This document shows positions 15,001-21,000 of a stretch of 50,823 nucleotides of DNA, one piece after another. Position 1 is the stretch's first letter. Each line of letters begins with the position of its first letter. This DNA comes from a virus. Its lineage: Duplodnaviria; Heunggongvirae; Uroviricota; Caudoviricetes. A program made the position numbers. The DNA lies in IMG/VR virus record IMGVR_UViG_2721755725_000006. One strand, given 5' to 3'.

Positions 15001-18000
15001 TACCGGCGAATGCGGGCATTCTGCTGGTTCCGTGCTGTCGTGGTGGTTCAGCGTTCACCACCGGAGCCGATGGCACATACAGTGACGCGAGTGGTGCCTC
15101 GGAGAATTCAACCCGCTGGGGTGTGGACAAGCCGCTGTATAAGGACCTTATCGGTCGAACAAAAGCAGCACTGAAGAAGAATCCGAAAAATGTGCTGTTT
15201 GCCGTGGTGTGGATGCAGGGGGAATTTGATTTTGGCGGTACGCCGGCAAATCACGCAGCACAGTTTGGTGCGCTGGTTGATAAATTCCGTGCAGACCTGG
15301 CGGATATGGCAGGTCAGTGCGTCGGTGGCTCTGCTGACGGTGTTCCCTGGATATGCGGGGACACGACGTATTTCTGGAAGCAGAAGAACGAATCCTCGTA
15401 CCAGACGGTGTACGGCAGCTACAAAAACAAAACGGAAAAGAATATCCATTTCGTACCGTTCATGACGGATGAGAACGGGGTGAATGTGCCGACGAACAAA
15501 CCGGAAGAAGACCCGGACATTCCGGGTATCGGATATTACGGTTCGAAATGGCGTGACAGCTCAGCCACCTGGACGTCACAGGACAGGGCGAGCCATTTCA
15601 GCGCCTGGGCACGCCGCGGGATTATTTCCGACCGTCTGGCAACGGCGATTTTGCGCCATGCGGGAAGAGTGGCGCTAAACGCGGGGGCATCATCGACAGT
15701 ATCAGAGGTGCGCCCGTCATCGCCTTCCGGTGCAGAAGCCACAGGCGTCACAACACTGCTCTCTTACCTTGCCAGCGAGTCAGAGGGAAGCCTGAAAGTA
15801 CAGGGATGGTCAGCCAGTGGCGGCAGGGCAGAAGTGGTCAGCGATGCGGAGGGAACCGGAGGTAAGGCAGTGAAGCTGACCAAGGAAGCCGGTAAAAGCA
15901 GCTGGGTGCTGGAGTACGCCGCGGGCAACGGTGCGGCTCTGTTACAGAAAGGGGGGCAGATTCGCTGCCGCTTTAAGGTTTCGGGAGCGCTGGCTGCGAA
16001 CCAGTATGTTATGGCGTTTTACTGGCCGGTATCTTCACTGCCACAGGGCGTTGCCCTGACCGGAGACGGGGGGAATAACCTGCTGGCAGCGTTCTACATC
16101 CAGACAGATGCAAAAGACCTGAATGTGATGTACCACAATGCGAAAGTGGCGACAAACAACCTGAAACTGGGAAGCTTTGGCGCATTTGATAACGAATGGC
16201 ATACGCTGGCTTTCCGCTTTGCCGGGAATAACAGCCTTCAGGTGACGCCGGTTATTGATGGTCAGGATGGCACACCGTTCACGCTGACGCAGTCACCGGT
16301 CAGTGCCTTTGCGGCGGATAAACTGCATGTGACAGACATTACCAGAGGTGCGACTTACCCGGTACTGATAGACAGCATTGCGGTGGAAGTGAACAGCACA
16401 GACACTGCGGCATGATAAAAAAACCGCCAGCGACAGGAATGGACGCTGGCGGTGGTGATACCTATGGAGAAAAAATAAAGGAACGATACTTTCGTACTCT
16501 GGTTTTTAATGAAAACAGTTCTTATTGTCAACAATAACGGAAAGAAATTATGACATTTCTGAACCAGTTAATGCTGTACTTCTGTACGGTGGTCTGTGTG
16601 CTGTATCTCCTTTCGGGTGGGTACAGGGCCATGCGTGACTTCTGGCGCAGACAGATTGACAAAAGGGCCGCTGAGAAAATCAGCGCCAGTCAGTCAGCCG
16701 GAAGCAAACCCGAAGAGCCGCTCATTTAGCGGCAACTTTCTTAATCACACCTTTCGACGAGAAAATCCCATGTCAGAAATTACATCCCTGGTCACTGCTG
16801 AAGCAGTGAAGGAAGTCCTGCGCTCTGAAGAAGTCCGGAGCGCACTGAAACAAAAACTTCGCCATAACCTGGAAGCGCGTCTTGATGCAGAGGTTGATGC
16901 CATTCTGGATGAGCTGCTTGGTGTACAGGCAGAGCCACCGACTGAAGCGGGAGATACCACCGCAGAGAGCGGTGAAGTTCAGCCTGAATCACCGGTCGCC
17001 GATGCGACTGAACCTCAACCCGAATCGGTCATGATGCTGTAACGGGGAGTCAGGGCCATCAGTAAACAGCTGCTGGCCTTTTTCATGTTGTGAGCTTCCG
17101 GATAACGGGAGACGGGGTATGTACCAGATGGAAAAAATCACAACAGGTGTGTCATACACCACGTCAGCGGTGGGGACGGGATACTGGTTACTGCAGCTGC
17201 TGGACAAAGTCTCTCCGTCCCAGTGGGTGGCGATAGGTGTGCTGGGGAGTCTGCTGTTTGGCCTGCTGACGTATCTGACTAACCTGTATTTCAAAATTAA
17301 AGAGGACCGTCGCAAGGCTGCCCGGGGAGATTAGGTGATGAACCATGAAGAAATGAATCAGCGCTTCAGTCGTCTGGAAAATGAAATTGCTGAACTGAAT
17401 AAAAAACTGTCGACGCTGATGCCTTCTGAAGATGAAAAAAAACGCCGCGATGAGCAGAAATCTCTCAGAGTGTTTCAGTATTCATAATGATAATTTCAGT
17501 GAGCTGGAATGTGAACCGCCCCGGAAATCCTGGAGACTAAACTCCCTGAGAAAGAGGTAAACAGGATGACTAAAAATACTCGTTTTTCCCCCGAAGTCCG
17601 TCAGCGGGCGATTCGTATGGTTCTGGAAAGTCAGGATGAATATGACTCACAGTGGGCGGCAATTTGTTCCATTGCCCCAAAGATTGGCTGTACGCCGGAG
17701 ACTCTGCGTGTCTGGGTTCGCCAGCATGAGCGGGATACCGGGGGCGGTGATGGTGGGCTCACCAGCGCTGAACGTCAGCGTCTGAAAGAGCTGGAACGTG
17801 AAAATCGTGAACTGCGCCGCAGTAACGATATCCTTCGCCAGGCTTCCGCTTATTTTGCGAAGGCGGAGTTCGACCGCCTCTGGAAAAAATGATGCCACTG
17901 CTGGATAAGCTGCGTGAGCAGTACGGGGTCGGACCGGTATGCAGCGAACTGCATATTGCCCCGTCAACGTATTACCATTGTCAGCAACAGCGACATCATC

Positions 18001-21000
18001 CGGATAAACGCAGTGCCCGTGCGCAGCACGACGACTGGCTGAAGAGAGAGATACAGCGCGTATACGATGAAAATCATCAGGTGTACGGTGTGCGTAAAGT
18101 CTGGCGTCAGTTGTTACGGGAAGGAATCAGGGTGGCCAGATGTACAGTGGCACGTCTCATGGCGGTTATGGGACTTGCCGGTGTTCTCCGGGGTAAAAAG
18201 GTCCGTACGACCATCAGCCGGAAAGCCGTTGCCGCAGGCGACCGCGTAAACCGTCAGTTCGTGGCAGAACGACCTGACCAGCTGTGGGTGGCTGATTTTA
18301 CTTACGTCAGCACATGGCAGGGCTTCGTCTATGTGGCGTTTATCATTGATGTGTTTGCCGGATACATCGTGGGGTGGCGGGTCTCATCGTCTATGGAAAC
18401 GACATTCGTGCTGGATGCGCTGGAGCAGGCGTTGTGGGCCCGTCGTCCGTCTGGCACCATCCATCACAGCGATAAAGGCTCTCAGTATGTGTCACTGGCC
18501 TATACGGAGCGACTAAAAGAAGCCGGATTACTGGCATCAACAGGGAGTACAGGCGACTCGTATGACAACGCGATGGCTGAGAGCATCAATGGTCTTTACA
18601 AAGCGGAGGTAATACACCGTAAGAGCTGGAAAAACCGTGCAGAAGTGGAACTGGCCACACTAACGTGGGTGGACTGGTATAACAATCGACGATTGCTGGG
18701 AAGGCTGGGCCATACTCCTCCGGCAGAAGCAGAAAAAGCTTATTATGCTTCCATCGGAAACGATGATCTGGCAGCCTGAGTTCACAGATAAAACACTCTC
18801 CAGGAAACCCGGGCGGTTCAATGGGAGTGTAACCGGCCATCCTTTGTTGTATCCGGTGATGCTGGGAAAATAACCATCTCAGAAAATGGAAAAGTAACAC
18901 CGCCATCGCACCAGCATAGTGAGGTGCTCATTGAATTTGCCATTGATTACCTGAAGAACAATAAAAAGCAGGGGCTGATGAAGTGCATTGGTCGTTGCAT
19001 GGGATATCTGCAGATAGCTGCTGAGATTGAAGCGCTGGCCAGTGGTGCGGACAAGGATGCAGTTGTGCGGGAGGCTCTTCTTCGTGAGTTTGACAACCCG
19101 CCCTTTAAAAAAGTGCCGGCTTACTGGTTTCATCCAGGACTGACTTATCTTAAAGGACGTATATAAGCTGGCTCGTTATCTGTTGCCGATAAATCCTGAT
19201 AAATATCCATGAACACCAAAATCAAATACGGCCTGTCGGCTGCCGTTCTGGCGCTGATTGCCGCTGGTGCGCCTGCGCCTGACATTCTCGACCAGTTTCT
19301 GGATGAAAAGGAAGGTAACCACACCACGGCATACCGTGATGGTGCGGGTATCTGGACCATCTGCCGAGGTGCCATCATGGTGGATGGTAAGCCTGTGATT
19401 CCTGGCATGAAGCTGTCGAAGGAAAAATGCGACCAGGTTAACGCCATTGAACGTGATAAGGCGCTGGCATGGGTGGAGAAAAACATCAGAGTGCCACTGA
19501 CCGAACCCCAGAAAGCGGGGATTGCGTCATTCTGTCCGTACAACATTGGCCCCGGTAAGTGTTTCCCGTCGACGTTTTACAGACGGATTAATGCTGGTGA
19601 CCGCAGGGGAGCATGCGAGGCGATTCGCTGGTGGATTAAGGACGGTGGCAGAGACTGCCGTATTCGCTCAAACAACTGCTACGGTCAGGTCTCACGGCGT
19701 GACCAGGAGAGCGCGCTGGCGTGCTGGGGAATTGACAGATAAGCAGAATATTTTGCTGAAAAATGCGGTTTGCTCACACGGGCGGATAACACGAAATCCT
19801 GCGAACTGGCAAAAACTAAGTGAATAAAAGTAAAACCCCGTTTGTTGGCCGCAAGTGGGGTTTTGTGTTTCCTGACTCCGGAAAAGTCAAAGGAGAAAGT
19901 GTGTTTGATTTTAGCAAACTGATTCGGGAGATTCGAATGATGGCTGAAAAATTATCCACCTGGAAGTTCATCCTTATCTGGCTGGTGTTTGTGATTATGG
20001 CTTCCGGTTATTTCATTGGTCAGATACGCTGGTGGTGAAATGAACCGCGTACTGTGCGTGGTCATCATTGCCCTGCTGGTGGCCTGTGGTGCGCTTAGTC
20101 TGGGGCTGAATCATTACCGTGATAACGCCATAACCTACAAAGAGCAGCGCGATAAAAAAGTCAGTGAGCTGGAGCTGGCAAATGCAACCATTACTGATAT
20201 GCAGCAGCGCCAGCGTGATGTTGCTGCACTTGATGCCAGATACTCGAGGGAATTAGCCGATGCGAGAGCTGAAAATGAAACTCTGCGCGCTGATGTTGCC
20301 GCTGGTCGTAAGCGCCTGCGGATCAACGCCAACTGTCCAGGCTCCTTGCGTAAAGCCCCCATCACCTCCGGCGTGGATAATGCAACCGGTCCCCGACTGG
20401 CAGAAGCCGCTGAACGGGATTATTTCATCCTCAGAGAACGGCTGATGGCAATGCAGAAGCAACTGGAAGGAGCACAGGAATATATCCGTACCCAGTGTAT
20501 ACCGTGATGTTTTGTTACGAAGGTGTTACTGGTAACGTTAAGGTAATTTAACAAAGAGTCAGTTCCGGACTTTATAGTGTGCTCAGTTCATGGCCAAAAA
20601 CGATTTCTGTGATAAATATTTTGAATATTATTTACAGGTAAATGGAGTGGGGCGCATGGATAGAAATATTACAATAGAGTATGAAGTATATGCCCGTATT
20701 GTATGGGCAGAGAAGGCAAAAACATGGTAATTCCGTGTGTTGCCATGATACCTGATTGGCAGAATTGTTGTTTGGTTTTGAGTATATAGTCAGCGTCTTT
20801 TGTTCGGTAATTGCTCTTTCAATTAAAATGCCAGATATGATTTGCTTTTCTTTGTTGTTTAGTTTTTTTTTGTATATTATTTTTATTGTTTTTATATAAT
20901 TAGTTTTTTATTGTTGTCTTATTAAGGACGGTTAATTCAGGATGGCAGTCTGTAGATAAACGGAGGTTACTTATGCTACATGATCACCTGGCAGAATGTC

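Follow-up and report, generated by a model that had tools for sequence, protein, structure and literature searches.

The IS3-family insertion sequence (IS) IS629 sits mainly in prophages and leaves target duplications of 3-4 bp. Its target specificity has been described as unknown, and IS1203 is its O111 isoform (PMC3271280). In phages of enterohaemorrhagic Escherichia coli (EHEC), Q-modified RNA polymerase transcribes the late genes, those for lysis among them, from pR' and through tR' (PMC7547250). Insertions of the IS3 and IS66 families are known in the Q-to-S late region of phages encoding Shiga toxin (Stx) 2a, and Stx-phage holins nearly identical to the one described below have been classed as pinholins (PMC10462455). 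The IS629 copy analysed here was found in a 50,823-nt stretch of viral DNA (IMG/VR record IMGVR_UViG_2721755725_000006, Caudoviricetes; the whole stretch is called the window). It is located between the holin gene S and the endolysin gene R of a decayed, effector-carrying lambdoid prophage of E. coli O111:H8 of the Shiga toxin-producing type (STEC). An earlier note on this DNA had considered the insertion likely to be polar on the lysis genes and the prophage possibly lysis-defective. The analysis favours, with good confidence, an ordinary and recent IS629 insertion into an accessory gene that was already dead, with little effect on lysis.

Identity and boundaries of the IS629 copy

The element, its parts and its flanking duplications are the following.

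17512-18820, + strand, IS629 (IS1203 subtype, IS3 family), 1309 bp, in the orientation of the late/lysis operon
17509-17511, left copy of the 3-bp target-site duplication (ATG)
17512-17536, + strand, left inverted repeat (IRL), TGAACCGCCCCGGAAATCCTGGAGA, the 25-bp inverted repeat as annotated in phage CP-1639
17566-17892, + strand, orfA, 108 aa, Pfam HTH_Tnp_1
17847-17963, + strand, ALIL pseudoknot region (RF01497), frameshift-stimulating, with the A6 slippery run at 17884-17889
17889-18779, + strand, orfB, 296 aa, in the -1 frame relative to orfA, Pfam HTH_21, rve and rve_3
18797-18820, + strand, right inverted repeat (IRR), CCCGGGCGGTTCA against the canonical CCCGGGGCGGTTCA, one G fewer
18821-18823, right copy of the 3-bp target-site duplication (ATG)

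The element starts with TGAACCGCCCCGG and finishes with GGCGGTTCA (TGAACCGCCCCGGAAATCC and GGAAACCCGGGCGGTTCA in longer reads), which gives it TG...CA ends. It was compared with the element annotated as IS629 in phage CP-1639 (1310 bp) and showed 99.9% identity, with no mismatch and one indel. Both open reading frames (ORFs) were intact and their overlap was located at the A6 run, 17884-17889. The ALIL model of Rfam scored 121.5 bits for a gathering score of 50. The length, the ends, the imperfect inverted repeats of about 25 bp, the identity to the reference, the ORF layout and the 3-bp duplication are those of IS629. The window element is a complete, ordinary IS629, and the earlier reading of its ends, orfA, orfB and A6 site was borne out by the reference identity, Pfam and Rfam. 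PGAP labels the same copy 'IS3-like element IS1203 family transposase', with the mentions 'programmed frameshift' and 'AL1L pseudoknot'.

Such copies are abundant. A megablast search against phage records gave 168 full-length matches to the window IS629, with 55 records at 99% identity or more, and about 35-40 IS629 matches were counted per O111:H8 chromosome. The IS629/IS1203 copies of EHEC genomes and Stx phages are 99.9-100% identical over their full length and have in common with the window copy the ends, orfA/orfB, the A6 run with ALIL and the 3-bp duplication. The window copy differs from them by one G lost in the G4 run of IRR. Compared with other O111 copies, it showed this missing G plus 0-2 mismatches, the G being the sole difference for four of the six full-length copies compared.

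The empty site and the interrupted gene

To reconstruct the empty site, the IS and one ATG were removed in silico. The resulting sequence was found 600/600 identical, with a single ATG, in many complete genomes, including that of O111:H- strain 11128. The ATG duplication is therefore real and not a chance repeat. This agrees with the direct repeats reported in the earlier note, whose interval 17509-18823 comprises the IS plus both duplications, and it supplies the uninterrupted S-R junction that the note had proposed to look for in related prophages. In 11128 the empty site belongs to the same prophage: its ISEc47, TerB, holin and lysozyme proteins are the same, and an allele of the nanS-p esterase gene occupies the same position. 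The filled junction was present in 33 of 5,426 complete genomes, and every listed genome with a serotype was O111 (:H8, :H-, :NM or :H2). Many O111:H8 strains retain the empty site. Since the filled and empty alleles have identical flanks, the insertion is recent and polymorphic within the O111:H8 lineage, where it provides a clean lineage marker. It is already known, as it is annotated in RefSeq across the 33 complete genomes.

The insertion lies in the remnant of an accessory gene, which is now in two parts.

17338-17511, + strand, 5' portion of the split ydfR-like accessory gene (pseudogene), from PGAP, intact 185-aa homologues and phrog_1085
18824-19166, + strand, 3' part of the same gene (pseudogene), from PGAP ('missing N-terminus') and homologues

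Once the IS is removed, a single frame crosses the junction (...NDNFSELE, then WECNRPSFVVSGD...) and continues to a stop at 19166. In the IS-bearing strains, PGAP places a pseudogene 'missing N-terminus' directly after the IS; in IS-free 11128, it annotates, between holin and lysozyme, a single gene of 517 nt as 'frameshifted'. The repaired product, used as a protein query, retrieved intact homologues of 185 aa (87% identity), forms of 213 aa and 'YdfR family' forms of 287-296 aa, the latter carrying an additional N-terminal DUF1327 domain. Relative to the intact 185-aa homologues, 14 codons are absent from the window allele (...DEQ[FAAFDDYCRKV]MSRN...). In the DNA, 41 nt were deleted between two GATGAGCAG direct repeats, which shifts the frame. 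The scar is the sole remaining GATGAGCAG repeat, at 17449-17457, and 11128 is identical at this place. Because IS-free 11128 shares the 41-bp deletion and its frameshift, the accessory gene was broken before IS629 arrived. The description of the IS as inserted within the lysis cassette thus stands as regards its place between S and R; what it splits is an already frameshifted ydfR-like gene and not an intergenic spacer.

The YdfR/DUF1327 genes of lambdoid prophages occupy the same holin-lysozyme position, and the C-terminal 170-180 aa of their 287-296-aa products are homologous to the window gene. Unlike them, the window gene and its intact 185-aa relatives are without the DUF1327 domain itself. 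In a long homologue (P0034), DUF1327 covers residues 1-100, the part absent from the window gene, and the gene matches positions 117-296 of phrog_1085, i.e. the C-terminal extension of the family. The repaired 171-aa product gave no Pfam match and has no DUF1327 domain. Searches for a function in Pfam, NCBIfam, PADLOC and the PDB gave no match, and those in PHROGs matched only families of unknown function.

Lysis genes

The lysis genes on either side of the insertion are listed below.

17119-17334, + strand, holin S, 71 aa, P21 holin S family, class II pinholin type, Met1/Met4 dual start
19209-19742, + strand, endolysin R, 177 aa, GH24 phage lysozyme, signal-anchor-release (SAR)-like N-terminus, E35/D44/T50
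20040-20507, + strand, Rz (i-spanin), 155 aa
20260-20445, Rz1 (o-spanin lipoprotein, 61 aa, lipobox), embedded in Rz in another frame

The holin stop codon (17334) is 177 nt before the IS and the endolysin ATG (19209) is 388 nt beyond it, in line with the position between the two genes given in the earlier note. S, R, Rz and Rz1 are intact, and the sequences of R, Rz and Rz1 are unchanged. The R and Rz protein accessions are the same in IS-bearing strain SD134209 and in IS-free 11128, the R accession also occurring in strain 110512.

S matched PF04971 (P21 holin S) with E=8.5e-33 over 63/64 profile positions. Its hydropathy peaks at about residues 33-50, the first segment is weak, and both Met1 and Met4 are present. 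On these features S is a predicted P21-type pinholin, and its homologues suggest that it would form small, depolarising holes and not large lesions. R matched PF00959 (E=5e-24) and the phage 21 endolysin R21 (3HDE, E=3e-16), and it has the E-8aa-D-5aa-T triad (E35, D44, T50). Residues 7-24 of R, YGLSAAVLALIAAGAPAP, are Ala/Gly-rich, with 56% G/A/S/T and a mean hydropathy of about 1.8-2.0. With its lysozyme fold, its triad and this SAR-like N-terminal domain, R is predicted to be a SAR-type endolysin.

The cassette resembles that of phage 21 by its P21-family holin, by its R21-like endolysin with the same E35/D44/T50 positions and a SAR-like N-terminus, and by the location of Rz1 inside Rz. It is unlike phage 21 in having an accessory pseudogene and an IS between S and R and a terminator-like hairpin between R and Rz. 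The R-Rz gap is about 300 nt long and holds no annotated gene.

Late transcription

The features relevant to transcription of the lysis genes are the following.

8755-9309, + strand, Q-like late antiterminator (DUF1133/Phage_antitermQ), phrog_753 'anti-termination protein Q-like'
9388-9410, + strand, tR'-like intrinsic terminator, GCCCGC-TTTTT-GCGGGT followed by T8, just 3' of Q, read from the sequence
13055-13480, - strand, ISEc47 tnpA
12708-13058, - strand, ISEc47 tnpB
11064-12677, - strand, ISEc47 transposase

A Q-family gene followed by a strong promoter-proximal terminator, both upstream of the lysis genes, gives the pR'/tR' arrangement and is the predicted layout of a lambdoid Q-dependent late operon. 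One terminator-like hairpin with a U-run, of -21.6 kcal/mol, closely precedes S (17052-17084) and another, of -16.5 kcal/mol (z=-2.8), closely follows R (19831-19865), so the operon already relies on read-through. In the IS, the terminator scan gave one weak sense-strand terminator-like site (18279-18294). The regional count of terminator-like sites was at chance level (6 found for 4.4 +/- 2.5 expected).

The late unit contains another IS. The IS66-family element ISEc47 (2.4 kb, - strand, about 11000-13500) is inserted in the same transcription unit, between the tRNA cluster and the TerB-like gene/nanS-p, in IS629-filled and IS629-empty strains alike. Its position is where the stx genes sit in Stx phages. 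Stx2a phages likewise carry an IS629/IS1203 or IS66-family element inside the Q-dependent late unit, upstream of or among the lysis genes. Their insertions are in or before nanS-p, whereas the window IS629 is between S and R, in a prophage without stx. When a virion-derived phage with IS629 in its late operon was sought, phi346 turned out to carry IS629 in the early-left region instead.

Consequences of the insertion for lysis

The state of the prophage was read in SD134209, to which the window is 99.993% identical over 40.5 kb. In this strain the prophage is at tRNA-Ser/mtfA, its integrase is frameshifted and lacks the N-terminus, and its exonuclease gene (exo) is split by another IS629. The same int/exo truncation was found in 110512. 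The prophage cannot excise normally, lysis defect or not. With the integrase truncated and frameshifted, exo disrupted by IS629 and ISEc47 inserted in SD134209, the question of whether the prophage is lysis-defective is largely moot.

The best explanation for the locus is a recent, ordinary transposition. IS629 would have moved by copy-out/paste-in, by means of the OrfAB transframe transposase produced through -1 frameshifting at A6, and would have left the 3-bp duplication. It would have landed, co-oriented with the late operon, in the remnant of the ydfR-like gene that separates S (P21-type holin) from R (SAR-type endolysin). As the target gene was already dead through the 41-bp deletion between GATGAGCAG repeats, the direct genetic cost would be nil. 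S, R, Rz and Rz1 would normally be transcribed from pR' by Q-modified, terminator-resistant RNA polymerase, and the added 1.3 kb would be expected to lower lysis-gene expression slightly, if at all. The insertion would then be a neutral, lineage-marking polymorphism in a prophage already excision-defective and carrying other ISs.

The polarity foreseen in the earlier note would act by termination in or after IS629, uncoupling R/Rz/Rz1 from S, so that the host would not lyse on induction. Polarity is a classical effect of ISs. With IS629, 1.3 kb are added and some 430 nt ahead of R are untranslated; R has no clear ribosome-binding site, and the weak site at 18279-18294 is on the sense strand. 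Set against this are the Q-antiterminated operon, in which existing terminator-like hairpins already need read-through, the chance-level count of terminator-like sites, and the 2.4-kb ISEc47 present upstream in the same unit in strains with and without IS629. Forbes and Herskowitz reportedly observed in 1982 that N and Q of lambda suppress the polarity of insertions. We infer weak polarity because Q-modified polymerase is established as terminator-resistant; strong polarity of IS629 on the lysis genes is unlikely, as the Q-like antiterminator, the tR'-like terminator, the existing hairpins and the lack of a convincing sense-strand terminator in the IS suggest. A lysis-defective prophage is likewise not supported by the anatomy, given a target gene that was already dead, intact lysis genes, a predicted antiterminated operon and a prophage defective on other grounds. 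For an antiterminated operon in which the gene that was hit is already dead, the presence of an IS should not be equated with loss of function.

Q-independent transcription supplied by the IS appears very improbable. It would come either from read-through of the transposase promoter, with low constitutive expression of the SAR endolysin and the spanins, or from an outward hybrid promoter at the left end that makes antisense RNA to the holin. IS629 and R have the same orientation, no + strand terminator follows orfB, and the junction creates a promoter-like site (TTCACA-17-TATCAT, 10/12, minus strand, 17515->17487), which is a consensus match only. The -35 hexamer of this site is made of 4 nt of the IS left end and 2 nt of flank, and the site is directed outward from the IS, in antisense to the holin gene. 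The scan, however, gave 2 promoter-like sites in 4.3 kb for 3.4 +/- 1.9 expected by chance, with no + strand outward promoter toward R, and IS3-family transposase promoters are weak. Selection of the insertion as a domestication step, in which damped lysis of an effector-carrying prophage keeps its cargo for the host, can practically be set aside. The prophage does encode type III secretion system (T3SS) effectors (nleL and espN here, nleC in other strains) and IS629 has repeatedly hit the S-R interval, but the prophage is already unable to excise, S, R, Rz and Rz1 have stayed intact, many O111:H8 strains have the empty site, and a target preference explains the recurrence better.

Several points weigh against the neutral insertion that we favour. 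The argument for neutrality is drawn from the pre-existing frameshift, and IS-free strains might still make an N-terminally truncated product (ORF from 17432) that the IS would destroy. The Q activity of the DUF1133-type protein is predicted from its family membership. From the orfB stop (18779) to the R start (19209), some 430 nt now go untranslated, and Rho could be loaded there in case of incomplete antitermination; R is without an obvious Shine-Dalgarno sequence. Finally, O111:H8 carries the IS-excision enhancer IEE (PMC9943667), so the empty state in some strains could be ancestral or an excision product. The O111:H8 polymorphism could accordingly be a gain in a sublineage or the result of IEE-promoted excision in other strains.

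Recurrent IS629 insertions between S and R

Further insertions in the same interval were searched with junction queries anchored on the window site. Such queries favour nearby, co-oriented insertions, and they give no denominator of all IS629 sites. A second, identical IS629 was found in the same orientation, shifted rightwards by 2 bp from the window site and flanked by the duplication GGG; it lies in another prophage, in a paralogous gene with 95% identity. It was present in O111:H- 11128 (L006 4812-6121, at about 1.62 Mb) and in 31 other genomes (32 in all), in strains filled and empty for the window site, and many strains carry both. The paralogous prophage of 11128 has the same IS sequence, orientation and gene family between holin and lysozyme; it differs by the 2-bp shift and by GGG in place of ATG. 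The GGG-type insertion is an independent event, since it is shifted by 2 bp, has another duplication and lies in a paralogue.

In strain 2013C-4974 (L011 3639), an IS629 of another subtype (95.6% identity) is inserted 10 bp leftwards in an allele that is the same as that of the window, with its right side rearranged onto gpJ. Thus at least three independent IS629 insertions are found within 12 bp, with differing duplications or positions, two of them in different prophage paralogues, and with two IS629 subtypes. Two further independent insertions, also of other subtypes, occur elsewhere in the S-R interval of other prophages: an IS629 (95.4%) in the corresponding region of a long YdfR-type gene, with the duplication CTG, in 2013C-3277, SJ3 and others (L009/L010 ~3655), and an IS629 (96%) located 917 nt after the holin gene, with the duplication ACC, in strain 07_3722 (L013 3541).

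The draft contig ABILCR010000126.1 (L012 955-975) carries the GGG-type paralogue and reads GGAATGGGGGTAACCGG (AATGGG-GG-TAACC) for the intact GGAATGGGAGTGTAACCGG (AATGGG-AGTG-TAACC), exactly at the insertion point. The protein cluster starting at this scar-like site has 143 members. From its sequence, the allele may be the footprint of an IEE-promoted excision.

Three independent events within 12 bp are not easily put down to chance. That the stretch of about 12 bp (...TTTCAGTG/AGCTGGAATG/GG...) of the S-R accessory gene is a genuine IS629 insertion hot spot is a tentative reading, to which we give a little less than even weight. If true, the hot spot would provide a defined substrate for the study of IS629 target choice and IEE-promoted excision. 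On its own, the window insertion matters little, being one of the IS629 matches of the chromosome and already in RefSeq, and the hot spot is the most interesting residue of the analysis.

Other leads on the site were discarded. An inverted repeat-like 'surrogate end', TGTAACCGGCC, situated 5-7 bp to the right of the insertion and resembling the IS end TGAACCGCCCC, was equalled in score by 20% of random 60-mers of the window and 6% of shuffles. The five S-R insertions all share the orientation of the operon, but the junction queries could retrieve only that orientation, and the bias is one of ascertainment. Partial proteins of draft assemblies starting at the site (P0096, P0093) were uninformative: their contigs begin there without an IS end. 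A search of IMG/VR for TAACCGGCCATCC at 0-16 nt after the IRR end gave no match.

Homopolymer differences in the window

The run of IRR at 18806-18812 has G3 in the window and G4 in all complete RefSeq genomes with the same junction, including SD134209. Over the 40.5 kb compared with this strain, the window shows two homopolymer contractions and one single-nucleotide polymorphism (SNP). The one other indel is a C4 -> C3 change at about 27853-27856. It splits a head-decoration (gpD-like) gene (27737-28083) into ORFs of 40 and 74 aa, and this gene is intact in 110512 and SD134209. Because two homopolymer contractions accompany a single SNP in 40.5 kb, consensus errors are suspected in the source assembly. 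The missing G of IRR is probably a homopolymer sequencing error, or else a private mutation, and the change in the C-run is probably an artefact of the same kind. If the IRR change were real, binding of the transposase to this end might suffer, which would freeze the window copy in place.

Prophage arms and neighbouring genes

In the right arm of the window (about 37000-50823), tail tip/fibre genes 97% identical to those of 110512 are followed by nleL (43737-45893) and espN (46675-50076). In most O111 genomes this nleL/espN arm is in a different prophage (at about 1.38 Mb); in SD134209 it is joined to the window prophage. The window element is therefore a recombinant in which arms were swapped between prophages. 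The right arm matches SD134209 (nleL/espN), which served as the genomic context of the window, and not 110512 (nleC cargo). Against 110512, a cluster of 27 mismatches is located at 34706-34952.

Three tRNA genes are located 3' of Q (10607-10858), namely a tRNA with a CAT anticodon (Met for ARAGORN, Ile for PGAP), Arg-TCG and Arg-TCT, and no stx gene is present. In Stx phages, the tRNA cluster ileZ-argN-argO is upstream of stx, and the window cluster resembles it. An AraC-type helix-turn-helix (HTH) protein is encoded just after the tR'-like terminator (9865-10578) and a PerC-family regulator after Rz (20973-21287). A sok antitoxin RNA lies beside a hok/gef gene (6141-6315), and a match to the small RNA (sRNA) STnc100 was found just upstream of nanS-p (14168-14340).

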